From IMG/VR virus record IMGVR_UViG_3300046703_000100, positions 1-64,000 of that record: a stretch of DNA of 64,000 nucleotides; one strand, given 5' to 3'. Shown piece by piece: positions 1,149 to 32,145 of this stretch. The translations under genes were made by a program, and so were the position numbers. This DNA is from a virus. The stretch's first letter is position 1, and the number at the start of each line of letters is the position of its first letter. Under the pieces are notes generated by a model. That model was not told where the DNA came from. It searched no databases and saw only the letters and a program-made list of their open reading frames with translations.

Positions 1149-2355
1149 ATGCTAAGGTGTGCTTGCATTTCTAAAAACGGTACAACTTACTCTATTAATG
1201 GGAATAGAGAGGAAATAGACCTATTTTTGCTTGAAATTGAAGGCAATGAAGGCATAAAGGTATACCGGATACTTGATAAAGATACCGGACAAGTTATCGA
1301 AACACAAGACGGAGTGAAAAATAAGGAGAATTAAATGAAAATTTTAGGATTGATAATTTTAATAATTGGATTAATAATAGGCATTTTGACATGGTATCAC
1401 GTATCACAAATGCCAAAAATCAGTACCGTAAATTTTGAAGGAGTAACAATAAGTATTAAAATACCTTCAATAATTTCGCCGAATACCTTCAACGATATAA
1501 CTTGTACAACACGATTGACAGAATAAAGGAGATAATCAATGAACAAAAAACAATGGTATGAATTGTTTTCGTATAGCAAAGAAGAAGGAACACGCACAAT
1601 AGCGACTTTTGATACTTATTTAGAAGCATTACAGGAAAAAATAAGATTAGACGAATTAAAGACCGGACAGATTTTGAATATTGATAAATGGGAAGATACC
1701 GATAATCCTCACAATATAATGTAAGGAGATAGAAGATGTTTAATCATAGACCATATTGTAGAAAAGAAGGTAGATGTATTAAATGCGGTAGATATATTTG
1801 TGAAGGTTGCAACGCTATTGACGAAACAGGACATTACGGTATTTGTATTGCTTGTAATGCAAAAGAAATGAAATTTAGAAGCGACGTTAAATTACCATTT
1901 CGTCCTATTATAAAACCGAAAAATATAGAAAGATATACAAATACTTGTAATGATAGGTTTGACGGATATACAGAAGAACTAATATAAAGGAGAAAAAGAT
2001 ATGAGAACAAAAACTATTACGGCATTGGCTTATAAAATGAGATACGCCGAGAACTATTATTTAGATAGCGGAACGGATTATAAAAAAGATAAAGTTATAA
2101 AGGAATTAAGAAGATTAAAGCCGTCAGAAAAAGAATATGATTTGTTTAATTCGCTTTGCAACAGTATGGGGTGCTAACATGAACGATATAAAATATCCGA
2201 CAACATTAACAAAGATACAAAGGAAGATACAAAAATCAAAATGTCCGGCTTGTGGAGAGGGCAGATTACATAGAGTAGACGGAGAAAATGAAATAATGTT
2301 ATGGTGTAATTTATGCGATTGTGCAGTTGATAGCGACGGTGGATATACTGCTTAA
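1149..2355 (+). other. Run of small (about 45-85 aa) early ORFs, several Cys-rich or with one TM helix
   Basis: Tightly packed ORFs, most preceded by AGGAG/GAGG; no recognisable families. Confidence 0.6.
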
Positions 2356-2451
2356 AAAGAGGACAGTATGAATAAAATTTTAATTTTATATTATGGTTTA
2401 ATGACATTAATCGTCGGTACATTGTCGTATATGTTTTATTTATTGAAGAAC

Positions 2452-2480
2452 TTGACCTCGAATAAAAAATAGTGTATACT
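2452..2480 (+). promoter_or_regulatory. Sigma70-type promoter P2
   Basis: TTGACC, 17 nt, TATACT. Confidence 0.75.
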
Positions 2481-2486
2481 TATTAT

Positions 2487-2569
2487 TAAGAAGGCGAGGA
2501 AGGGTAGATTAGTCAACTACCGCAAAATTTGGATAAGGTGGACTATAAAACACTCCCCAAAACTTCTTA
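2487..2569 (+). ncRNA. Candidate structured leader RNA or sRNA (multi-stem, possible kissing loops)
   Basis: Begins at the predicted P2 +1; stems TAAGAAG/CTTCTTA, GGTAG/CTACC, TTTGG/CCAAA plus GTG/CAC; loops TAGTC and GACTA are complementary. Confidence 0.4.
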
Positions 2570-2590
2570 TTATAAAAAGGAAAAGAAAAT

Positions 2591-3166
2591 ATGAGAGAAC
2601 ATTATAATTCAGCATATTGGATAATTTTTGAAACAATTATTTTAATAATAATGTGGACATATTTATCTACATTATCTTTCGCAGAAGAAACAAAACATAT
2701 CTATATAAATATGGATAAAACATATGAACAATGCGAAAACGAAGCATTTAAAAATATTTATCAAATAATAAACTCAATAGGAGAAAATAAAAACAATACA
2801 ATGCCCGAACAACTTTGCGATGATATAGAAAGTCATATACAATATAAAGATAATATAGATGTATATGGAAGCGATAGATATGCTTCTGTTGATGAAATTA
2901 TTAATAAAAGAGCCGGAGATTGCAAAGTGTTTGGAGTATTAACTTATGACAGTTTAAAAAAAGCAGGATATGAAACTCATTTAGTAGCATTATATAATAG
3001 ACACAGTGGACATATTATAGTTATTTTTAAAGAAAAAGATTATTGGAAAGCAATATCGAATGGAAATTTGTTAGATTATAAATGTAAAAATTATAGAGAT
3101 TTATTTAAAATTTTTATAGGATATTCTGACTATAAATTTATTAATGAAAAAGGATATGGAGAATAA
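2591..3166 (+). CDS. Transglutaminase-like cysteine peptidase with signal/TM segment
   Basis: N-terminal hydrophobic helix; GDC motif (RAGDCK), GHIIV, downstream W..ISN. Confidence 0.7.
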   Translation: MREHYNSAYWIIFETIILIIMWTYLSTLSFAEETKHIYINMDKTYEQCENEAFKNIYQIINSIGENKNNTMPEQLCDDIESHIQYKDNIDVYGSDRYASVDEIINKRAGDCKVFGVLTYDSLKKAGYETHLVALYNRHSGHIIVIFKEKDYWKAISNGNLLDYKCKNYRDLFKIFIGYSDYKFINEKGYGE

Positions 3167-3304
3167 TTTTATGGACAAAAAAATTTATTTATCGATTATA
3201 GATATTGTTCATTTAGGAAATTTTATAGAAACTTCCGAATGGCATGAAGCATTAAAATTAATTAGAGAAAAACTACCTCTTGACCGAAGAATTGCGAGGG
3301 AAGA

Positions 3305-4426
3305 ATGATAATTATATTTCTTACAATAGGTATATTTGCTATATATCTTTATAAACAACAAGAAAAAAGACAAGCACAAAAACAAATAAGAATAGAAGTA
3401 TCTTCTTTAGTAGGCGAAGATGCTATTGTTCCGATGGAAAATGTTAATCCTATTATTGATGTAAAAATTAAAGACGGACAAGTAGATACAAGCAAAATAA
3501 TACCATATACAGGAACAGAAGTCAAATGCTTTCAATGGCAACCACAATCATTTTCGCAATATATAGGACAGGAGGAGGCGAAAGAACAAGCAAAAACTAT
3601 AATAAAGAAAATTAATAGAGGAATAAAATGTCATGTATTACTTTCTGCAATACAAGGGCATGGGAAAAGTTTATTTGTTAAATTACTTGCAAGAGATTTA
3701 AATGCTCACTATATAGAAAGAGTAGGGAAAACATTAGACTATGACACAATCATAGATGTCATAAATGAAATTAATACTTGTGTAGAACAGAAAGTTATTT
3801 TTTTCCTCGACGAGACGGACACCGCAGACATGAAAATTTTAAAAATAATGAATCCTATTTTACAAGATTTTAAATTAAATAATATAAAAATTAAACCATT
3901 TTGTTTTTGTGGGGCGACAATTAATAAAGATATTTTAATATCTAAAGTACCAGATTTTCTTGATAGAATACAGACACAAATTCAGTTACATCGTTATAAC
4001 GATGAAGAAATAAAAATAATCTTAAAACAATATGTTTCTCATTTATATCCCGAAGAAAAAATATCAGAAAATATTTATGATTTAATAGCAAAATCATGTA
4101 AATATAATCCAAGATTAAGTATTGGTATTACAGAAGATTATATAGTTAATCAAAATTTAATCAAAACATTTAGAGATAGACAAATTATAAAAGACGGATT
4201 AACAGATATTGATATTAAGATATTATCAGTATTATCTCTCGCCTCAAAACCGCTTGGTGCTAATGCTCTTTCACAAAAAATAGGGATTTCTCAAAATATT
4301 TATACGAGACAATACGAACCTTATTTAAGTGAATTTAATTACTTAGAAAGATGTCCTTCTCGTAAAATAACTAATAAAGGTCGAGAACTTTTAAGGAGTT
4401 TAGAAAATGAAAATTTATTATTGTAA
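3305..4426 (+). CDS. ruvB: RuvB-like AAA+ ATPase with N-terminal TM anchor
   Basis: P.SFSQYIGQE, Walker A QGHGKS, Walker B FFLDE, GAT, LDR, NPR, C-terminal GLTDID...YEPYL winged helix; residues 1-16 hydrophobic. Confidence 0.8.
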   Translation: MIIIFLTIGIFAIYLYKQQEKRQAQKQIRIEVSSLVGEDAIVPMENVNPIIDVKIKDGQVDTSKIIPYTGTEVKCFQWQPQSFSQYIGQEEAKEQAKTIIKKINRGIKCHVLLSAIQGHGKSLFVKLLARDLNAHYIERVGKTLDYDTIIDVINEINTCVEQKVIFFLDETDTADMKILKIMNPILQDFKLNNIKIKPFCFCGATINKDILISKVPDFLDRIQTQIQLHRYNDEEIKIILKQYVSHLYPEEKISENIYDLIAKSCKYNPRLSIGITEDYIVNQNLIKTFRDRQIIKDGLTDIDIKILSVLSLASKPLGANALSQKIGISQNIYTRQYEPYLSEFNYLERCPSRKITNKGRELLRSLENENLLL

Positions 4427-5120
4427 AGACTGTTATAAAAAATTAAACGGACATATTGCTAAAAGATGTCGAAAATGTTATATACAATATAAAAATAAAA
4501 TTAATAAAAAAAGTTGTATTACTTTACAGATTTATCTATGTAAAGATTGTAAAATAAATAAAATTACTTATTTTACTGCAATAAAAGGAGAAGGTAGATG
4601 TCGTAAATGTGCTTCTATTATAAGAGGTAAAAAATATAGCGGTAGAAATCATAAATCTTGGAAAGGTGGAATTAAAAGACTTCCTTTATGTGAAATTTGT
4701 GGGAAAAGATTAAGTAAAATACAATGTAAAAGATGTAAACAATGTATGAATTTTGGACGAAAATTAACAAAACAAACAAAAGAAAAAATTAGAAAATCGG
4801 TACTAAATAATCCTCGAAAATCTAAAATTGAAATTAATAAACTTTTAAAAAGTGTTGATTTTTTATGTCATAGTATTTATAAGAAATTTAGAAATTATAT
4901 AAGAATGAAATATAAAAATACTTGTCAAATATGTAATAGAAAAAATGGTAGAAACATTGTTCATCATCTTAAAGAGAGAAGAAATTTTCCAGAATTATGT
5001 ATGAAAGAAAGTAATGTAATTCTATTATGTATAAATTGTCATACTACAATACATAATATTACTGATAAAGGAATAAGAATAATAACCGAACTAAGAAAAC
5101 AAATAAAGGAGAAAAAATAA
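4407..5120 (+). CDS. HNH endonuclease with multiple CxxC repeats
   Basis: CQIC...VHHLK...NVILLCINCH; WKGG motif. Confidence 0.8.
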   Translation: MKIYYCKDCYKKLNGHIAKRCRKCYIQYKNKINKKSCITLQIYLCKDCKINKITYFTAIKGEGRCRKCASIIRGKKYSGRNHKSWKGGIKRLPLCEICGKRLSKIQCKRCKQCMNFGRKLTKQTKEKIRKSVLNNPRKSKIEINKLLKSVDFLCHSIYKKFRNYIRMKYKNTCQICNRKNGRNIVHHLKERRNFPELCMKESNVILLCINCHTTIHNITDKGIRIITELRKQIKEKK

Positions 5121-5273
5121 TGAATAAAAACATTAATAAAATGCTTGAACAAGAAGTTAGAGATTTATATGTAAAAAAGATGATGAATTATGCTGATAAA
5201 TTAATTGAGAAAAATGATATAAAAGGATTGAAGAAATTACTTAAAATGCTTGAAAAATAAAGGAGAAAGTTTT

Positions 5274-5663
5274 ATGAAAACAAAAAAATTTAATTATCGA
5301 GAGTATGTTGATTATTTAGAGAATGATATTAATATTAATACAATGCAACAATATATTAATAGTAAAAAACGTCTTAATCATCATTTAACTTCAGAACAAC
5401 GAAAAGAACTACAAGAGAATATTTTACCTCATTTTATTATTCAAATGAGAAAAGAAATAGATAAAGATATAAAATATTGGTATAACGCACCTATTTTTAG
5501 ATTATCCTATATACATTGTTTAAATATGAAAAAACCTTTAATAGATATATTCAAAGTCGCTAGCGAAATTTGTAATAGACTAACAGAAGATAATAATATG
5601 ATTGCTATAAAAAGAAGATTCAAAGAATATTACGACAGAATGGTAAACATAGAACTTATATAA
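5274..5663 (+). CDS. Hypothetical protein
   Basis: SD AAGGAG before ATG 5274. Confidence 0.55.
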   Translation: MKTKKFNYREYVDYLENDININTMQQYINSKKRLNHHLTSEQRKELQENILPHFIIQMRKEIDKDIKYWYNAPIFRLSYIHCLNMKKPLIDIFKVASEICNRLTEDNNMIAIKRRFKEYYDRMVNIELI

Positions 5664-5838
5664 AAGAGATAAAGATGAAAAAAAATGAAACTGCATATTG
5701 TTCTATTCATGGGTCATTTTATTCTGGTTTTCCTAAATGTCCTTTTTGTAAAGAATTAAAAGACGCTTTAAAAGACGATTGCTCTTGGTGTTCTTATCGT
5801 ATTATAGAAAAAGAATGTCCGAATTGTGGAAGGAAACC

Positions 5839-6651
5839 ATGAACGAAAAATTTAAGGATTATTTATTATTGAACGGTAGTGCTTTTTTAACGGCTCGTAA
5901 TTATATCAGTCGTATAGAACGAGTGTTATCAAAAGTTAAAGAAGAAAATTTTTCTGAAGAAACACTTACAAATTTTTTACGAGAACTTCAAAAGGAAAAT
6001 TCTATATCTACATTTAACGGATATTTAAATGCTTTAACGGCTTATTTAAAATTTATTAAAAAAGAAATCCCGTTACCGAAATATTTAAAAGATATAAAGA
6101 CATTACCAAAAAGTATTGACGAAAATCAACTAGAAAAATTCATAGATATTTTAGGACAAGTATTACATACAGACTTTTTAAAAATGAAAGCTGTTTTTTA
6201 TCTTTTCTTCTATTCTGGCATAAGAGTTAGCGAAATAAATATATTAAAACGATTTGATTTTGACTTTAATAAATTAGAAGTTAAAATATTAGTATCGAAA
6301 ACAAGAGAAGAACGTATTGCAGTATTTAATATAAAAACAAAGAACGCAATACAAGACTATTTTAATAGCGAAGAAGAACAAGATAATGCCTTTAATATTA
6401 ATTCAAATGCTATACAACAACGATTAAAAGGATTTAAACAATATCTACCAGAATTAGACATTCATGCTCATATATTCCGGCACAGTTTTGCTCGTTATTG
6501 TTTGGAAGTATTGGGATTGGATATATTAACGGTTAGTAAACTTATGGGTCATTCAAATATCGCTACAACTGAAAGATATTTAAGATTAACAAATACTCAA
6601 TTTAGAGATATTTATCATAAAAAAGCAGATAATAAAGGAGAAACAAAATGA
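5839..6651 (+). CDS. Tyrosine recombinase/integrase (XerC/D-like)
   Basis: SGIRVSE, K, HIFRH, GHSNIATTERY catalytic motifs; start moved to ATG after AGGA. Confidence 0.9.
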   Translation: MNEKFKDYLLLNGSAFLTARNYISRIERVLSKVKEENFSEETLTNFLRELQKENSISTFNGYLNALTAYLKFIKKEIPLPKYLKDIKTLPKSIDENQLEKFIDILGQVLHTDFLKMKAVFYLFFYSGIRVSEINILKRFDFDFNKLEVKILVSKTREERIAVFNIKTKNAIQDYFNSEEEQDNAFNINSNAIQQRLKGFKQYLPELDIHAHIFRHSFARYCLEVLGLDILTVSKLMGHSNIATTERYLRLTNTQFRDIYHKKADNKGETK

Positions 6652-6951
6652 ACAGATATAGACGTGTTACAGACCATTTAACGAGGGATTTAATGGGAAT
6701 TATAATGGGTATGTTAAGTATTTTTACATTAATCTATGCTATATTAACAAGGAGATTATAAACATGAATAAAAGAGTATTAAAGATTAATAAAAAGAAAA
6801 TAAAAATACGTAAAATTTGGATAAGAAATCCGAATACACAAATTGTTCCGAATAAGAAAAAAGAGATAGAAGAAGATATATATTACGATAGAGATGAGGA
6901 AAGTTTGGAAGAATTTGAACGAGGTTTTCACGATTAATAAGGAGATATATT

Positions 6952-7293
6952 ATGAATTGTCCACTTGAAATTACCGAAAAATTTTCTGATTGGTCGAACA
7001 CTTGCCAAGAATGTAGACGTTATCAAGAATGTATGAATCAATCTTATGAAAACGTATCAGAAGATAAAGAAGTTTCTGGTGATAATTTTCCGACATATCA
7101 TATTATCGATGTACGTAAAATGATAAAAAAAGATAGAACAGAAATGATAGAGAAATTATTAATTGAAAATCTTGGGAAGATAACACAGGACGATGTAGAT
7201 GATATAGAAATTGATATAGGAATATATAATCAAAAATGTAGGAAAGAAAAAATAAAAAGACAATATAAAAAGAAAGTTAAACAAGATGAATAA
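6952..7293 (+). CDS. Hypothetical protein, Cys-rich N-terminus
   Basis: SD AAGGAG; C..CQEC...C. Confidence 0.55.
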   Translation: MNCPLEITEKFSDWSNTCQECRRYQECMNQSYENVSEDKEVSGDNFPTYHIIDVRKMIKKDRTEMIEKLLIENLGKITQDDVDDIEIDIGIYNQKCRKEKIKRQYKKKVKQDE

Positions 7294-7690
7294 AAAACAA
7301 TTATCGAAAATGAAAACAATTTTATTAGAATTAGCCGAAAATAATAAAGAAGGATTTCCTTTTTCAGCTTGTATCGAATATAAGAAACATTTTTATTTTG
7401 CTGTTAATCATGTTACATCGAAAAATGACCCAACAGCACATGCAGAAATAGAAGCTATCCGTTTGGCATGTAAAGAAGCAAAAGTACCAGAACTTCAAAA
7501 TGGTATAATATATTCTTCTGGCGACCCATGTCCGATGTGTTTAACCGCTTGTGCTTGGGCGGAAATTAAATTAATTTATTATGTCAACGATTATACGGTA
7601 GCTACCTCTAATAATTATTATTACGACAGACCTTCGAAAGAAGTTAATAAATTTTTAAATTTAAAACGAAATATAAGGGAAATAATATGA
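7286..7690 (+). CDS. Zn-dependent nucleoside/nucleobase deaminase (GuaD/TadA-like)
   Basis: PFSA, NDPTAHAEIEAIR, PCPMC motifs. Confidence 0.88.
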   Translation: MNKKQLSKMKTILLELAENNKEGFPFSACIEYKKHFYFAVNHVTSKNDPTAHAEIEAIRLACKEAKVPELQNGIIYSSGDPCPMCLTACAWAEIKLIYYVNDYTVATSNNYYYDRPSKEVNKFLNLKRNIREII

Positions 7691-7846
7691 AATACATATA
7701 TACTTTAGAAATTAATAGAAGATTAGGTAGCTCTAATTGGTATTTGGACAGAATATATACTACAAAACAAGGTGCTATTAAAAAAGGAAAAGCAATTATA
7801 AAAAAATTTCCGACAAGCGGATTTGCAATTAAAAAATGGAGACTAT

Positions 7847-8998
7847 ATGAATGAAATATTTATAAATAAAAAAGGATTCGCAACTTTTGTTGGAGTATTA
7901 ATTCCTTTTGGCTCATATTATGAAGATTCAAAAGTTAAAGGTATTGCTCATTTCATTGAACATATGACTTTTAAAGCAACAAAATATCGTACAAAAAAAC
8001 AGATAAACGAATCTATTGAAGGGGTTGGAGGCGATATTAATGCCTACACTTGCGAAGAACAGACTTTTTATCATGCTATTGTTGCTAATAAATATAAAGA
8101 TATGGCAATCGATGTTATCAAAGATATAGCTCTTAACCCCTCTTTTCCTGCTAAAGAAATAGATAAAGAACGTGAAGTGATTATACAAGAACTTAAAATG
8201 TATGAAGATAATCCTTCTGCTATTGTAGGAGAGTTATATAATAAGATTTATTATCCAAAAGAGAGTGGTTTTCATCTTCCGGTAATAGGAACTAAAGAAA
8301 CTTTACATAAAATAAATAGAAAAGTATTAAACGAATATCATAAAAACAATTATCAAAATCCCACATTAATTGTCATAGGGGATGTTAAAAGCAAAACAAA
8401 TAAAGAAGCGATAATAACAGAAACTACATTAAATACTATATATAAACAAAAAAAAGATGAATATTTAGAAAAAAGAAAAATAGAACAAGCTCATATGATT
8501 ATAGGGCATGATGTTTATTTATCGCAGTATTCGAAAATAGATACAATATTACTATTAAATTTAGTTAAATTACTTTTAAATGGTATGAGTGGCAGGTTAT
8601 TTGGTAAAATAAGAGAAGAAAATAACTTAGTTTATGGAATACATTTTAATTACACAGTTTGGTCAGGTGGTATGATTACATGGTACGTCAATTTAGGACT
8701 AGATAAATCAAAAATCTATAAAGCTCGTAAATTAATTGAACAAGAAATGACAAAAAATGTCTTAAAAAAAGAACTAAAAGAAACAATTATAAAAACGATA
8801 GGAACTAACGCTTTAGAAAGCGAAGATATAAATACTATATCCGAGTTAATTGTAGATTGTACACGTAAACAGATAGATTATAGCCCTTTATATCATGATT
8901 TCGAGAAGAATCTCCGTCGAGTAAGTGGAAATTTGAACGAATTTATAAAAGCGTTGAATTTTAAAGAAAATTTTATGTGTGGTATCGTTCCAAAATAA
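7847..8998 (+). CDS. M16 family (pitrilysin-like) zinc peptidase
   Basis: GIAHFIEHMTFK (HxxEH), INAYT, KEREVIIQE, SGRLFGKIREENNLVY. Confidence 0.9.
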   Translation: MNEIFINKKGFATFVGVLIPFGSYYEDSKVKGIAHFIEHMTFKATKYRTKKQINESIEGVGGDINAYTCEEQTFYHAIVANKYKDMAIDVIKDIALNPSFPAKEIDKEREVIIQELKMYEDNPSAIVGELYNKIYYPKESGFHLPVIGTKETLHKINRKVLNEYHKNNYQNPTLIVIGDVKSKTNKEAIITETTLNTIYKQKKDEYLEKRKIEQAHMIIGHDVYLSQYSKIDTILLLNLVKLLLNGMSGRLFGKIREENNLVYGIHFNYTVWSGGMITWYVNLGLDKSKIYKARKLIEQEMTKNVLKKELKETIIKTIGTNALESEDINTISELIVDCTRKQIDYSPLYHDFEKNLRRVSGNLNEFIKALNFKENFMCGIVPK

Positions 8999-9010
8999 AC
9001 TGTAAATTAC

Positions 9011-9039
9011 TTGACATCTTCAGGAAAATAGTGTATAAT
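9011..9039 (+). promoter_or_regulatory. Sigma70-type promoter P3 (perfect consensus)
   Basis: TTGACA, 17 nt, TATAAT. Confidence 0.85.
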
Positions 9040-9081
9040 TTAGTTATGAGAGAAAGAGACTTTAAAAAAAGGAGTAATGAC

Positions 9082-9738
9082 ATGAAATCAGGACAAGAAA
9101 CTTTTGATTGGTCGAAATTTTGGCAAGGCTGTTTAGGTTTGTTCAATCCGGTTTTGTGGGCAAAGGATTTAGTAAGCCTTTTTAATGTTCGAAAATTAAT
9201 TATATACATTATAATAATTGCAGGAGTTTTCTTCTATGCTTATTCAATTGGAAATCAGAATGTTCCGGTACAGATTTCGCTTGGATATGGCAAAGAAGCA
9301 ATAATAAATCTCGGTTCGGGAGAATTCTTATGGATACAAAAATCTGGTGAAGTTGCAGTAATCGACAATGCTAATCCAGAAAAAGCAAAAATACTTCGAA
9401 TAATAAAAGTAAAAGATTTAGGTGCATTAAAAGGAAAATTAAGTGCTATTGGGGTACAGTTTGTTCCTATTGCGGTTGTAGGATATGGACTTGGTATAGG
9501 AACAGACGGTGGTATCGAAGGCGGAATAGAAGGTGGTGCAGGTATATCGTTTTTCAGATATTGGCAGGGGTCGGTAGAAGCATTTTTAACACAAAAAGGT
9601 GTATATGTAGGTACTTCATATAGACTTGATAGAATAAAATTATCAAATACTTCCGTTGGTATTGCTGTAGGAAAAGGTTATCAAGATTTTACTAATAGTA
9701 ATTATAGGATAATGATATATGGAAGTATTCGTTTCTAA
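9082..9738 (+). CDS. Membrane protein: N-terminal TM helix and Gly-rich C-terminal beta strands ending in Phe
   Basis: SD AAGGAG before ATG 9082 (alternative in-frame ATG 9046); TM LIIYIIIIAGVFFYAY; ends YRIMIYGSIRF. Confidence 0.6.
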   Translation: MKSGQETFDWSKFWQGCLGLFNPVLWAKDLVSLFNVRKLIIYIIIIAGVFFYAYSIGNQNVPVQISLGYGKEAIINLGSGEFLWIQKSGEVAVIDNANPEKAKILRIIKVKDLGALKGKLSAIGVQFVPIAVVGYGLGIGTDGGIEGGIEGGAGISFFRYWQGSVEAFLTQKGVYVGTSYRLDRIKLSNTSVGIAVGKGYQDFTNSNYRIMIYGSIRF

Positions 9739-23762: not shown

Positions 23763-24299
23763 ATGAATAAATTCGTATGGTCGATAGACAAAATCGAGAA
23801 GCGGTTCGAAATTGCTCTTAAACGCAATGCAATCGTACTTGGACTTGATTGTGCGACAAAGACAGGATATTGTGTTGCTAAAACCGATGAAAAAAAATTG
23901 ATATTAGAACTTGGTTTTATAAATATTGACGTTTCCAAAATTGAAGACAAATATGCTAAAAATGAATTTAGATATAATGCCTTCTATGATGCGATTAATT
24001 CTCTAATTGTACCAAAATTTGAAGCGATTGTAATAGAAGATGTATTCTTTTCAAGAAATGTACTTAGTTTGATTTTGCTTGCCAGAATAGGAGCGATAGC
24101 ATACACGATTTGTAAAGTAAAAGGAATAAAAGAGATTATATGGAAGAGTGCAATTTCTGCCAGAAAACTTTTGAAACTTCCTTGTAACAAAAAGAAAGTT
24201 ATAGTGCAGAAGGAATTTAGTAAAAAACTCGGAATACTTTTAAAGAATGAAGATGAAATCGACGCAATTATATTAGCATTAGTGGGGTTATTACAATGA
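23763..24299 (+). CDS. ruvC: RuvC-like Holliday junction resolvase
   Basis: VLGLDCATKTGY, IVIED, EDEIDAIILA. Confidence 0.8.
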   Translation: MNKFVWSIDKIEKRFEIALKRNAIVLGLDCATKTGYCVAKTDEKKLILELGFINIDVSKIEDKYAKNEFRYNAFYDAINSLIVPKFEAIVIEDVFFSRNVLSLILLARIGAIAYTICKVKGIKEIIWKSAISARKLLKLPCNKKKVIVQKEFSKKLGILLKNEDEIDAIILALVGLLQ

Positions 24300-24971: not shown

Positions 24972-26033
24972 ATGGGTCGCCATTTAAAAACATGCTCATG
25001 CGAAAGTTGTAAAGAACGAGAGTCTCAAGAAATTATGAAAGAACAAATAGAACCAAAGATTGAAACACCTAAAGAGAATACTGAGTTTAATCGTACTATG
25101 AAAGAACTCGAACGAAAGTATTCTATGAAACCTGCATCTGAAATAGTAATTGAACCAAAGATTAGAACAGGTGTGTACGCATTTGATTATGTGTTGTCAG
25201 GGGGTATAGCACAATGTGAAGGTGGATGCAAAATTGAACTTTATGGTAGAGAATCAAGCGGAAAAACAACTTTGGCTATGAAAGTTGTAGCCAAATTTCA
25301 GGAATTAGGAAAATCTTGTATCTGGATAAATGCCGAGAATAACCTTGATTCGCTTTGGGCAGAAATGAACGGCGTAGATATAAACAAACTTTTAGTTACC
25401 AAACCAGAAACTCTTGAAGGTGCAGGAGACATGATTATAGATTTAGTCGGAAAGGTTGATTTAATAGTAATAGATAGTATTTCTATGCTTATTCCAGCAG
25501 AAGAATTAGAAGGAGGACTTGAGGATAAATCGATGGCATCTCAAGCAAAAGTGCTTTCTCCTTTTTGTCGAAAACTTTTACAATATTACAAAGATGCTAA
25601 AACTACGATTATCTTTATTAATCAGATGCGAGAAAAAGTCGGTGTTATGTATGGCAATCCCGAAACCACAAGCGGAGGCAGGGCAATTCGTCATCTTTAC
25701 GATATTCGAGTAGAAGTTCGTAAAGGTAAACCAATTGAAGAAGGAACAGGAGAAAGTAAAGAAGTAATAGGACATGAAATTCAACTAAAATGTACAAAAA
25801 ACAAAAAAGGTAGAGCGTATTTACAAAGTATCGTAGATTTTTTCAGTATTGCCAAGTTCGACAATCGTAAATCTTTAATTTTTGCTGGTCTAAAATATTG
25901 CGTGATTAAACGAGAAGGAAACACATACACTTTCAAGAATATATCAGCAGTAGGACAAGATAAGTTTATAGATAAATTCGATGATAAATTACTTAAAGAA
26001 CTTGAAGACGAAATTTGGAAATTGGAAAAATAA
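24972..26033 (+). CDS. recA: RecA/UvsX recombinase
   Basis: ELYGRESSGKTT, IVIDS, FINQMREKVGVMYGNPETTSGGRA, KNK. Confidence 0.95.
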   Translation: MGRHLKTCSCESCKERESQEIMKEQIEPKIETPKENTEFNRTMKELERKYSMKPASEIVIEPKIRTGVYAFDYVLSGGIAQCEGGCKIELYGRESSGKTTLAMKVVAKFQELGKSCIWINAENNLDSLWAEMNGVDINKLLVTKPETLEGAGDMIIDLVGKVDLIVIDSISMLIPAEELEGGLEDKSMASQAKVLSPFCRKLLQYYKDAKTTIIFINQMREKVGVMYGNPETTSGGRAIRHLYDIRVEVRKGKPIEEGTGESKEVIGHEIQLKCTKNKKGRAYLQSIVDFFSIAKFDNRKSLIFAGLKYCVIKREGNTYTFKNISAVGQDKFIDKFDDKLLKELEDEIWKLEK

Positions 26034-28516: not shown

Positions 28517-28656
28517 AAAAGAAGAATGTTTTTTTTATATGAGAGGTAAATGTGCCAGAGATGAAGAGAATCCTATTGCTATAATACCTTGTACAAAGAA
28601 ATGTAAGTTTTTTCTTTCATGGGAACATATGTTGAATGGTTTATCAGAAAAGGATT

Positions 28657-31600
28657 ATGATGCGAATTAATAACTTATTTTCAGAACATAAAGACCTTTA
28701 CGTATTTTATCGTGATGATTTATGTAATTTAAAGATTACAAAATTCACTGGTTTTTTCCCATATTTCTATGAACCAGACCCTTCTGGAAATTTTGAATCT
28801 TTTAAAGGTGAAAAACTTCGTAAAATAATTATATCAAATCCTTCAGAAATTCGAAAACAAGCAAGTACAAAAGCTTTTGAATCAGATATATTATTTGTAA
28901 AAAGATTTATGATAGATAAAGTAGATGTTATCGAACCTGCTCCTATTAAATACTGTTTCATAGATATTGAAACTCTTTCTCCCGAAATGCCAAATGTACA
29001 AGAAGCCAAATATCCAATTTCTTGTATTTCGATTTATAATTCATTATCTAAAGAAATTAAAACTTTCTATCTACCAGATTATGAATCAGAATACATGATG
29101 TTGGTTGCCTTTACAACATATATGAAAAAAGAAAAGTTTGATATATGGTTTTCATGGAATGTAAAGTTCGACTATAATTATTTATACAATCGCACTCTGT
29201 CGATATTCGATTTAGAAGGAATAAAAAACGCAGACTTGGCAGAATGTATAAGTCCAATAGATAAAAGTAGATATGGAGACGGAGAAGTAAAATATCCGGC
29301 AGGTACTTCGGTTGTAGATTATCTTGAATGGTTTAAAATAATTACATTAAAAAGAGAGAAAATGTATACTCTCGATTATATTGCACAGAAATTTTTAAAA
29401 GTTCCTCCAAAGGAAAAAGTAGATTTTAGTAAATTATCACCAAAATTAAAACAACATAATATTGATGATATAAAACTACTCGTAGGATTGGAAGAACTAA
29501 TGCATTTAGTATCCTATTACGACGAAATTAGACGAATTACACAAGTTGAGTGGGAAGATTTTATATATAATAGTAGAAGTATTGATATGCTTATTTTAAA
29601 AGAAGCTAAACGAAGAAATATAGTATTGCCAAATAGACCTTCTGGAGAAGGAGATGAAGAGATTTTCGAGGGAGCCTTTAGAGAGATATACGAGACTGGT
29701 CGTCTGGAGAACGTTGGTAAGGCAGATTTAGGTTGTTATTCAGAAGATACTGATATTTTAACTATAGAAGGATTTAAAAAATATAACGAATTAAAAATAG
29801 GAGAATCGGTAGCATCTTTTAATACAAAAATCAATAAAATCGAGTTTCAACCTATCCTTCATTTAAATATACAAAATGTAAAAAACCTACCTATGATAAA
29901 TCTGAAAAACTCTTATTCAACAGACCAACTTTTAACTTTAAATCATAAAGTTTTATTTAAAACTTCTTCAAAAAATCATAAAACGATAGAAAATACGACA
30001 AATGATTGGGAAATTTGTTACGCAAAAGATTTTCGAATTTCTCATTCTTTATTACCATTAACCGCTGAAATGAAAGATAAAGAGAATTATCCAATTTCTG
30101 ATGATATAATAAAAATACATGCTTGGATTATAACAGAGGGTTATGCATCAGGTAAAAATAAAGATATTTATCATATTAGTCAGAGCGAATCAATTAATCC
30201 TTTATTTTGTAAAGAAATTGATGAATCTTTCAAAAACCTAAATTGGAATGTAACTCGTTATGCAAGAATACGAAAAAATAATAGAATAGAAGTAGAATGG
30301 AATTTGAAATGGCTTTGGTCTACTTATATCGAGTTAGAAGAAAATTACAAAGCGATTCCTTTATGGATGCTCCAAAAATTATCAAAAAGACAATTAACCG
30401 TTTTATACGATACTTTAATGAAAGGGGATGGAGATAAAAAACGATATTGTTATTATGCTATTGACAAACTTGCTAAAGAAAGATTTCAATATTTATGTGC
30501 ATTACTTGGAAAAGCTTCTTATCAAAATAATAGAAAAGAAGTTTATTGTAAACCTAATAAATTTACAAGTCTTGAATCTGCAAATTTTAAAACTCAACAT
30601 AAAATTATAAATTATTCAGGTGTAGTATGGTGTCCTACAATTGCAAATGGATTTGTTTTAGTAAGAAGAAAAGGAAAGATATTTATTTCAGGAAATTCAG
30701 CCTATCCTTATGCTATTATAGAATTTTGTCTTGACCCTGCAAATGTAGTACAAGATAGCGGAGAAAATATTATACAGGTAGGAGACAATTATTTTAAACA
30801 AGATTCTAAAGCACTTATACCAACTATTATTAAAAAATTACTTGTTTTAAAAGCCACAATTAAAAAAGAATTATCAGAATGTTCAGTAGACGACCCAAAC
30901 CACAAAAATATTAAATTAAAATACGATGCTATAAAATCATTATGTAATACCGCATATGGAGTTACCGCTTTGAAGTTTTTTAGATTGTTTGATGTGCGTG
31001 TTGCATCGGCTACAACCTTCGTTGTACGTTCTTTACTACATTATATTAAAGATAAATTAGATGGTTCTGGACATCCGGTAGTTTATATAGATACAGATGG
31101 TGTATTTTATAAGAACCCTTCGACAGAAATAAATACAAAATTAAACGAATGGATTCAACAATGGGTAAAAGAAACTTTTAAAAAAGAAAGTGTGCAAATT
31201 TCGTTTGATTTTGAAGGTGTATACGAAAGTATTCTTTTATTGGCAAAATGTAGATACGTAGGAAGATTAAGAAAAAATAATGGAGAACTTGAAATAGAAA
31301 CAAAAGGTATTGAAGCAAAAAGAAAAGATTCTACCAAATATATGAGCAATTTTCAAAAGATATTAATAGATAAGATTTTAGACAACGAACCTAAAGAAAA
31401 AATATATGATTGGATAAAAGAAGAAATTAAAAATTTCCCAAAACAAAATATTATAGATATATCATTTCCTTGTAAAATGGCAAAATCAAAAATAGAATAT
31501 AAGTCAGTTCCCATCTTCTCCAGAGCTTTAGATAATACTCCGGAATTTAAGACAAGGGTAGGAGATAATTTCTACTATATTTATATGGAAGGTCTGGATG

Positions 31601-32145
31601 AAACAAAAAAAGATAAGGTTCTTGCTTTTGATGAATATAGATATGAACATATAAACAGAGAAGAAGTCGATTGGCAGAGGATGTTGGAAAGAAACATAGT
31701 TGCAAAAATAGACGTAATCTTTACAGCTCTAAAATGGAACTTAACGGACATTTACGTAGCTCCGCCGACTTCAAAGATATGTGATAAATGCCTAAAAGAC
31801 AAGTCGTTTTGTCGATTCCCATTAACCGGAAATACCTGCAAGGCGTGTATTACTCTCATAGAGAAGGCAAATAAGCCAAAGAGGGTCAAAAAGACCATAG
31901 AATCCTCTATTAGCGACACCCTGCCGAGCGATAAGGCGGATAAGGTAGGTCAGGATACCCCCGATTTGACAGGAAATACCCCTATTTTAACACAAAGTAC
32001 TGATAATAAAGGGGTTAAGATGGACAAAATCGATGACAAAGACCTCGTTACAGGCACTCCGGTCAAGTCCTTAAAAAAGAGGGGTAGACCACGAAAAATC
32101 AAGAAACCAGAAGACCTTAATTATGGGAAAGTAAAAAATGCATAG
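28657..32145 (+). CDS. Family B DNA polymerase with intein and extended C-terminal tail
   Basis: ExoI DIET, ExoII WNVKFDY, motif A DLG[intein]SAYP, motif B KSLCNTAYG, motif C YIDTDG, KGIE. Confidence 0.93.
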   Translation: MMRINNLFSEHKDLYVFYRDDLCNLKITKFTGFFPYFYEPDPSGNFESFKGEKLRKIIISNPSEIRKQASTKAFESDILFVKRFMIDKVDVIEPAPIKYCFIDIETLSPEMPNVQEAKYPISCISIYNSLSKEIKTFYLPDYESEYMMLVAFTTYMKKEKFDIWFSWNVKFDYNYLYNRTLSIFDLEGIKNADLAECISPIDKSRYGDGEVKYPAGTSVVDYLEWFKIITLKREKMYTLDYIAQKFLKVPPKEKVDFSKLSPKLKQHNIDDIKLLVGLEELMHLVSYYDEIRRITQVEWEDFIYNSRSIDMLILKEAKRRNIVLPNRPSGEGDEEIFEGAFREIYETGRLENVGKADLGCYSEDTDILTIEGFKKYNELKIGESVASFNTKINKIEFQPILHLNIQNVKNLPMINLKNSYSTDQLLTLNHKVLFKTSSKNHKTIENTTNDWEICYAKDFRISHSLLPLTAEMKDKENYPISDDIIKIHAWIITEGYASGKNKDIYHISQSESINPLFCKEIDESFKNLNWNVTRYARIRKNNRIEVEWNLKWLWSTYIELEENYKAIPLWMLQKLSKRQLTVLYDTLMKGDGDKKRYCYYAIDKLAKERFQYLCALLGKASYQNNRKEVYCKPNKFTSLESANFKTQHKIINYSGVVWCPTIANGFVLVRRKGKIFISGNSAYPYAIIEFCLDPANVVQDSGENIIQVGDNYFKQDSKALIPTIIKKLLVLKATIKKELSECSVDDPNHKNIKLKYDAIKSLCNTAYGVTALKFFRLFDVRVASATTFVVRSLLHYIKDKLDGSGHPVVYIDTDGVFYKNPSTEINTKLNEWIQQWVKETFKKESVQISFDFEGVYESILLLAKCRYVGRLRKNNGELEIETKGIEAKRKDSTKYMSNFQKILIDKILDNEPKEKIYDWIKEEIKNFPKQNIIDISFPCKMAKSKIEYKSVPIFSRALDNTPEFKTRVGDNFYYIYMEGLDETKKDKVLAFDEYRYEHINREEVDWQRMLERNIVAKIDVIFTALKWNLTDIYVAPPTSKICDKCLKDKSFCRFPLTGNTCKACITLIEKANKPKRVKKTIESSISDTLPSDKADKVGQDTPDLTGNTPILTQSTDNKGVKMDKIDDKDLVTGTPVKSLKKRGRPRKIKKPEDLNYGKVKNA
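29734..30696 (+). mobile_element. Intein with LAGLIDADG-like domain (321 aa)
   Basis: Starts CYSEDTDILT, TLNH, AWIITEG and LMKGDG, ends VWCPT...ISGN followed by Ser +1. Confidence 0.9.

Follow-up and report, generated by a model that had tools for sequence, protein, structure and literature searches.

What does a RuvB-type motor do in a phage that encodes no RuvA? RuvB is a textbook motor that is thought to work only when RuvA loads, activates and anchors it. The question is raised by a gene at positions 3,305 to 4,426 of the 64,000-nucleotide window analysed here, which is the first 64 kb of the virus record IMGVR_UViG_3300046703_000100. The record is complete, with a length of 91,572 bp and a 127-bp terminal overlap; it comes from peat metagenomes and represents an uncultured tailed phage with an AT-rich genome (GC content approximately 0.28). 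Our analysis suggests that the gene product is probably a RuvA-independent motor on double-stranded DNA that works with a phage tyrosine recombinase and uses an N-terminal membrane anchor as its fixed point.

The gene was first described, from the letters of the sequence, as encoding a full RuvB-like AAA+ and winged-helix architecture, and Pfam, the profile match to known structures and the predicted fold all agreed with that description.

3305..4426, plus strand: RuvB-like AAA+ motor gene, 373 residues (P0001), with RuvB_N, AAA lid and RuvB_C winged helix

The Pfam matches above the cut-offs were RuvB_N (residues 79-192, 38.0 bits), AAA and the RuvB_C winged helix (residues 297-363, 38.3 bits). 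A phmmer search of PDB aligned residues 79-364 with RuvB of Thermotoga maritima (E 4e-20), and a 40-sequence family profile matched RuvB among known structures with an E-value of 2.7e-46, the best match other than RuvB being RarA (8e-14). The AlphaFold2 model, built on the alignment of that profile, had a mean predicted local distance difference test score (pLDDT) of 90.2. In a Foldseek comparison of the model with PDB, the top 40 matches were all RuvB chains (E approximately 1e-21, template modelling (TM) score 0.75-0.81). The NCBIfam equivalog models were matched below their cut-offs (NF000868, 91 bits against 282; TIGR00635, 88.7 against 299), which indicates that the motor belongs to the RuvB superfamily and is not a RuvB orthologue. 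Among viral structures, the model was matched best by a 684-residue protein, A0A8S5VQM9 in BFVD (E 2e-17, 259 aligned columns), which may be another intein-bearing or fused form.

The same comparisons bear on whether the protein, instead of translocating DNA, could be an AAA+ switch of the clamp-loader, ORC or initiator type whose winged helix binds an origin. The best viral families in PHROGs are named “clamp loader”, and clamp loader and ORC2 were found among the weaker fold matches. These proteins ranked below RuvB in Foldseek (1e-11, TM score approximately 0.45); RuvB matched ten orders of magnitude better in E-value with all three domains covered, and two RuvB-specific arginines of the head domain are kept. 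A switch of this type is thus very unlikely.

The family to which the motor belongs is purely metagenomic. Clustering at 50% identity gives at least 136 clusters in a single clade, and approximately 1000 relatives are detectable. No DNA-level match to the window was found in a collection of 50,697 cultured-phage records, and tblastn found no close relative of the motor protein in the same records, with best identities of 25% or less. The latter matches are probably ordinary RuvB; two of them are annotated as Holliday junction DNA helicase.

The catalytic and DNA-contact residues of RuvB were found at the following positions, with conservation counted over 92 full-length relatives.

3644..3670, plus strand: Walker A, SAIQGHGKS (residues 114-122); G118, G120 and K121 in 92/92, position 115 A or G
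3797..3814, plus strand: Walker B, IFFLDE (residues 165-170); D169 and E170 in 92/92
3959..3973, plus strand: arginine finger region, LDRIQ; R221 (92/92), opposite T. maritima R170
4103..4117, plus strand: sensor 2, YNPRL (P269, R270); aligns with T. maritima P216/R217, 92/92
4193..4393, plus strand: C-terminal winged-helix “head” domain (residues 297-363), RuvB_C; R349 in 88/92, R353 in 92/92

The initial annotation had regarded the Walker A motif as divergent. The string is as it was given there, but it is not aberrant, being the norm of the family and still fitting [AG]x4GK[ST]. In the structure of RuvAB on a junction, arginines of the RuvB head domain bind the DNA backbone within the ring (PMC9477746), and those of RuvB from Streptococcus thermophilus are R291, R310, R312 and R315 (PMC9477746). 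R349 and R353 of the motor align with two arginines of the RuvB RTPRGR motif, the middle arginine being a serine in the motor, and the position of S. thermophilus R291 is a glutamine, as judged through the T. maritima alignment. Taken together, these residues suggest an active-looking ATPase that keeps its catalytic positions and two of the head-domain arginines.

The relatives P0098, P0100, P0136 and P0159 carry LAGLIDADG- or HNH-bearing inteins exactly at the Walker A loop. Inteins in a P-loop are typical of indispensable enzymes, and we count them as support for the identity of the protein as a RuvB-type enzyme. Among longer relatives of P0001, the intein-bearing form was the only one found. 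The motor homologue L143 is also among the intein carriers.

The absence of a ruvA gene near the motor had been pointed out in the initial annotation, together with the possible loss of the hairpin that binds RuvA. Both were borne out. The presensor-1 hairpin together with helix alpha-3 is the docking site of RuvA domain III, which promotes nucleotide exchange, activates the ATPase and provides the fulcrum for the RuvB lever (PMC9477746). In the motor, this region is shortened.

3860..3901, plus strand: presensor-1 hairpin region, with a 12-residue gap opposite T. maritima IMIGKGPSAKSI

The distance from the Walker B glutamate to the sensor-1 alanine was 35-38 residues in all members of the phage family and 47-49 residues in two canonical RuvB proteins; the deletion is thus universal in the family. 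Neither RuvA_N nor RuvA_C was matched in the complete 91,572-bp genome, and RuvA_N was not found in five related records, four of which are at least 96% complete by CheckV. With 12 residues missing from the hairpin and no RuvA gene in the genome, the motor is predicted to be unable to use RuvA. It would be independent of RuvA and would lack its docking interface.

If RuvA is dispensed with, which protein is the partner of the motor? A tyrosine recombinase gene lies 1.4 kb downstream of the motor gene.

5840..6651, plus strand: Xer-like tyrosine recombinase; Phage_integrase (72.6 bits) and SAM-like N-terminal domain (Phage_int_SAM_1)

The list of open reading frames (ORFs) places its start at TTG 5779, and the ATG at 5840, which overlaps the stop of an upstream zinc-ribbon ORF, is likely the real one. 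The catalytic residues R149, K174, H231, R234, H258 and Y267 are conserved. The NCBIfam models for XerA (123 against 220), XerC (103 against 335) and XerD (80 against 330) were matched below their cut-offs, suggesting that the enzyme is Xer-like and not an orthologue of any of the three.

The linkage between the two genes was conserved. Using the motor profile, we found 30 loci in IMG/VR, 29 of which were informative; 28 of these 29 had exactly one recombinase gene downstream on the same strand, at a gap of -11 to 1513 nucleotides (nt); in L016, L023 and L025, the motor and recombinase genes overlap. Among family loci in metagenomes, counted only where at least 1.5 kb of downstream sequence was present, a recombinase followed the motor in 12 of 13, with an overlap of the two genes in L117. 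The metagenome and IMG/VR counts are not fully independent, since some loci in the two sets represent identical DNA. Canonical bacterial ruvB genes in the same metagenome scan had no recombinase beside them (0/51 loci). The linkage also held in the reverse direction. When 80 loci were collected with a recombinase profile, a motor gene was present upstream of all 17 recombinases that exceeded 250 bits with the subfamily model, and of none of the 63 generic integrases (below 180 bits). Both in this phage and in each of five related genomes, the motor-linked recombinase was the only tyrosine recombinase. Furthermore, motor and recombinase co-diverge (Mantel r 0.67, reached in 0/2000 permutations).

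Fusion proteins provide a second line of evidence. An exhaustive profile-free search yielded P0114 (627 residues, ENA), in which residues 8-297 are the motor and residues 336-610 a SAM-like plus Phage_integrase domain; it has neither the anchor nor the conserved N-terminal segment described below. A follow-up search yielded P0246 (629 residues, JGI/Logan), 78% identical to P0114 over the full length. Since P0246 comes from separate data sources, the fusion is not an assembly error. With the family model, the motor half of the fusions scored 327-335 bits; with the model built for the recombinases encoded next to the motor, the recombinase half reached only 48-56 bits. The low score of the latter indicates that the motor has been joined to tyrosine recombinases of two lineages, which is the strongest argument for a functional association over inherited synteny. 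A conserved and sometimes fused recombinase points to site-specific recombination as the likely function of the motor.

A different explanation is that the motor serves general branch migration in phage recombination and replication, as an analogue of RuvAB or of T4 UvsW, and that the recombinase is merely a syntenic early gene. The Holliday junction is the native substrate of RuvB, and the phage has a set of recombination and replication proteins of its own; the window encodes a PolB-type polymerase, a primase, UvsX, an SbcC-like protein, an exonuclease and a RuvC-like resolvase, three of which are placed here.

23763-24299: RuvC-like resolvase
24972-26033: UvsX
28636-32145: PolB-type polymerase

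In addition, the family member L029 is without a recombinase. However, the motor gene lies 20 kb from the genes for RuvC and UvsX, in agreement with the early remark that ruvC is in another module, yet it is translationally coupled to the recombinase gene in several relatives. The two-way linkage and the existence of the fusion proteins also argue against general branch migration, which we regard as rather doubtful.

The N-terminus of the motor distinguishes it from bacterial RuvB and consists of three parts.

3305..3355, plus strand: hydrophobic anchor, residues 1-17 (MIIIFLTIGIFAIYLYK), from hydropathy; AlphaFold2 helix to residue 26
3389..3469, plus strand: variable disordered linker (residues 29-55), pLDDT below 50, no conserved columns
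3470..3538, plus strand: conserved N-terminal segment (residues 56-78), without counterpart in bacterial RuvB, pLDDT 79-95

The proposed transmembrane helix before the RuvB domains was supported by hydropathy, by the model and by similar helices at the start of homologues. The N-terminus MIIIFLTIGIFAIYLY has a mean Kyte-Doolittle hydropathy of 2.8, and AlphaFold2 placed a helix at residues 2-26 with a pLDDT of 94; beyond the linker, the model is ordered from residue 56. The initial annotation had considered a later start (at MENVNP), with which the helix would not be translated. We found no support for it; the ATG at 3305 shares bases with the stop codon of the preceding ORF (ATGA) and has GAGGGAAG immediately before it, and homologues also open with a hydrophobic helix. 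In residues 56-78, the family motif V-x-IK-x4-D-x-SKI-x-EY-x-G...K-x-FEF is kept in the crown clade with or without the transmembrane helix, and this segment may be a docking surface.

Conservation of the anchor among homologues, which the initial annotation had proposed to check, held in part. An N-terminal hydrophobic helix was present in 56 of the 92 relatives with a strict 17-residue window, and approximately 7 more had a segment of 13-16 residues similar to that of the motor studied here; the anchor is thus found in about two thirds of the family and absent from about one third. In the 56 relatives with the helix, it begins at residue 1-2; the net charge is approximately 0 on its N-terminal side, and the 12 residues that follow the helix carry +1.4. 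By the positive-inside rule, these charges predict an N-out/C-in signal anchor, with the ATPase in the cytoplasm. In a tree of 145 sequences, the phage family formed one starred clade of 136. The anchor, mapped as a label on this tree, required 16 parsimony changes, of which at least 8 were forced by well-supported branches, and deep branches were also anchored. Its presence on deep branches and its repeated gain and loss suggest that the anchor is old and recurrent but dispensable.

The anchor-less motors of L015-L028 begin with a conserved peptide, MDxFDxLGIxxLLxW, in which Asp5 and Gly8 are invariant. Because it is acidic and sequence-specific, it would seem to resemble a docking peptide more than a membrane-binding helix.

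The anchor had led the initial annotation to propose a membrane-tethered translocase for genome internalisation, tethering or exclusion. The tethered, RuvA-independent RuvB-type motor of that proposal agrees with our results; nothing specific to internalisation or exclusion was found. A membrane-tethered pump for genome entry, membrane tethering or superinfection exclusion, acting without the recombinase, would account for the N-terminal anchor and would fit the position of the gene, which lies behind a promoter-like site in a same-strand block close to the left end of the assembly. However, the first DNA cannot be imported by a protein that is synthesised only once infection has begun. Approximately one third of the family has no anchor, with at least 8 gains or losses of it on the tree, and such a pump leaves the recombinase linkage and the fusions unexplained. 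We consider this role unlikely.

We favor a motor that works with the recombinase, and the following mechanism can be proposed. A RuvB-type hexamer would pump duplex DNA, and the recombinase tetramer on its site, or a junction intermediate, would replace RuvA as the loading platform. The motor might then drive or direct strand exchange; alternatively, it might act as FtsK does on XerCD, by bringing the sites together and activating the recombinase. A flexible tether of approximately 30 residues would hold the motor at the membrane, on the cytoplasmic side. RuvB needs a fixed point to pull DNA, and this is normally provided by RuvA domain III (PMC9477746). In the phage protein, the membrane anchor would serve as the fixed point, and in the anchor-less fusions P0114 and P0246 the fused recombinase may take its place. 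Rather than in lysogenic integration, the machine most likely functions in the cyclisation of the replicating phage genome or in the resolution of its multimers.

Several observations weigh against this mechanism. The pairing of motor and recombinase is drawn from gene linkage and fusions, and linkage among related, largely syntenic phages could partly reflect shared ancestry. The T4-like context of L029 (7854-13105; gp30.3, DnaJ, RtcB) marks the limit of the linkage, as this member has the short hairpin and no tyrosine recombinase within 8 kb. The hydrophobic segment of only approximately 16 residues is short for a membrane span, and the absence of the anchor from about one third of members means that it is not essential to the core function. 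In this protein, Gln79 stands where RuvB has the cis-acting Arg21, an arginine that is present in 70/92 relatives. I206 (83/92) replaces the second threonine of the RuvB GATT sensor-1 motif, which we take, by our own count, to be T. maritima T158; T205 is adjacent. Finally, among the inverted repeats in 2300-7400, no shared recombination site was found near the module.

The search for a site covered 32 loci, in which no shared dif-like inverted repeat (10-nt arms, 5-9 nt spacers) was found within 1.5 kb of the module; GTCACAAAAA-N8-TTTTTGTGAC occurred in two loci only. An inverted repeat that is near-identical in two phages, GTCACAA(A/T)AA-N8-TT(T/T)TTGTGAC, lies at approximately 9516 in L017, between motor and recombinase, and at approximately 2282 in L033, upstream of the motor; these were the only two cases, and the repeat could be a regulatory or recombination site. 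We also considered the GC-richer 83-nt leader at 2487-2569 as a candidate and rejected it, as it is neither conserved in relatives nor repeated in the genome.

We also weighed a lysogeny module, with the recombinase acting as integrase and the motor assisting integration and excision as an accessory or directionality factor. The recombinase matches integrase families, and one relative is labelled as a provirus in IMG/VR. This record (G003, the record of L005; 100,617 bp) ends on both sides in phage genes (L112 and L113) that are homologous to the replication and tail modules of the phage studied here and continue the replication module; the label looks wrong. No member of the family was recovered from 185,579 species genomes in two narrow-pattern scans, which returned only a canonical RuvB and an unrelated match. 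The recombinase gene is mid-operon among genes of DNA metabolism, the genomes are of 70-110 kb with a full replication apparatus, and one recombinase has a probable intein. The latter is the protein of approximately 600 residues at L017:10280-12067, which has an intein-splicing match, below the Pfam cut-off, in the catalytic domain; the recombinase of similar length at L006:4329-6131 has a split Phage_integrase match and no intein match. Homing endonucleases in and between the motor and recombinase genes are likewise counted against lysogeny, which we judge quite unlikely. We favor a role in the lytic cycle, such as cyclisation or multimer resolution, because no members were found in the species genomes scanned, the provirus label is unsupported, the recombinase gene is mid-operon and a recombinase probably carries an intein; as the scans used narrow patterns, this is no proof.

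The gap between motor and recombinase holds different HNH or other endonuclease-like ORFs in the window and in L004, L009, L011, L018 and L030. Homing elements seem to insert preferentially at this place, between the two conserved genes.

How does the module compare with known systems? Bacterial RuvB (TIGR00635/NF000868; PDB 1IN4, 7PBL and 8EFV) shares the three-domain fold, the catalytic set and two of the head-domain arginines with the phage motor. In contrast, the phage protein has a hairpin 12 residues shorter in a genome without RuvA, approximately 78 extra N-terminal residues (membrane helix, linker and conserved segment), and a gene tied to a tyrosine recombinase and not to ruvA and ruvC. 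In the phage protein, the RuvB fold is set in a new architecture and combined with new partners.

FtsK with XerCD at dif resembles the module by analogy, not homology. Both motors have an N-terminal membrane anchor, a long flexible linker and a C-terminal winged helix; a ring-type motor on double-stranded DNA works with a dedicated Xer-type recombinase in FtsK-XerCD and, as judged by gene linkage, would do so in the phage. However, FtsK has a RecA-like motor of the FtsK/HerA type, whereas the phage motor is an AAA+ protein of the RuvB type and gave no match to FtsK_SpoIIIE (PF01580). FtsK has four helices and the FtsK gamma domain, whereas the phage motor has one helix and a RuvB_C winged helix. 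FtsK-XerCD also uses polar guide sequences and dif; in the phage, no polar guide sequences were identified, and no dif-like site was found within 1.5 kb of the module. We can only tentatively suggest that the phage system is a full counterpart of FtsK-XerCD, in which a RuvB-type ring at the inner face of the membrane loads, activates or drives an Xer-like recombinase.

Phage P1 encodes the Cre/loxP system, in which Cre serves genome cyclisation and multimer resolution and not chromosomal integration, and needs no ATPase. A phage-encoded tyrosine recombinase in a large phage is common to both systems; the recombinase studied here differs from Cre in being Xer-like and paired with a motor. IstB of IS21, MuB of Mu and TnsC of Tn7 are likewise dedicated AAA+ ATPases, encoded beside a DNA-rearranging enzyme that they control (PMC11208146, PMC11292022). 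They differ from the phage motor in belonging to other AAA+ clades, in having DDE transposases as partners and in acting as DNA-bound switches or filaments with no RuvB-type ring. The sole match to a transposase-regulator AAA+ family was TniB on the relative P0141, just below the cut-off.

A search of the full-text literature found no published description of a membrane-anchored or recombinase-coupled RuvB. The mentions of RuvB in PMC11529989 and PMC8451122 were set aside as passing and unrelated to the phage family.

The phage family appears to show a RuvB motor that has been rewired, with its RuvA interface removed, an anchor added, and a tyrosine recombinase coupled or fused to it. If the coupling is functional, the pair would have arrived independently at a second way of doing the task of FtsK-XerCD. 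It would also be a natural site-specific recombinase under the control of ATP, with a bearing on the genome topology of large phages and on recombinase engineering. It would represent the first ATP-driven tyrosine-recombinase machine besides FtsK-Xer, and the first RuvA-independent RuvB. The membrane tether could further provide a direct test of the “fulcrum” idea in the RuvB lever mechanism.

The genes from motor to recombinase overlap or abut one another, and no terminator-like site was found in 2200-9200; they would form a single operon. The other features of the gene run are as follows.

2452..2480, plus strand: promoter-like site, the best upstream of the gene run, 10/12 match
3144..3308, plus strand: 54-residue ORF, translationally coupled to the motor gene, its stop overlapping the motor ATG
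4407..5120, plus strand: HNH endonuclease gene, inserted between motor and recombinase
5675..5842, plus strand: 55-residue zinc-ribbon ORF, weak DZR match, its stop overlapping the recombinase start

A second promoter-like site is located at 9011 (12/12 match). The HNH gene is a probable homing element outside the machine. The 54-residue ORF lacks conservation among relatives and probably falls outside the core, and the zinc-ribbon ORF was not found in relatives by tblastn. The small ORFs (54 residues, 46 residues, zinc ribbon and 57 residues) were rejected as parts of the module, as they are not conserved beside it.

The initial annotation had also proposed an exported peptidase as a co-transcribed partner of the motor, and this was not upheld. 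The 191-residue protein encoded upstream (2591-3166) has an N-terminal hydrophobic segment, and its matches to DUF553 and Transglut_core were below the cut-offs. We rejected this transglutaminase-like gene as part of the module, since relatives do not keep it next to the motor gene.

Downstream of the recombinase, the ATG of a 37-residue ORF (6648-6761) overlaps the recombinase stop, and its product is a hydrophobic peptide (LMGIIMGMLSIFTLIYAILT). The gene run that holds motor and recombinase also includes genes for a dCMP/cytidine deaminase (7286-7690) and an M16 (insulinase-type) peptidase with an inactive C-domain (7823-8998).

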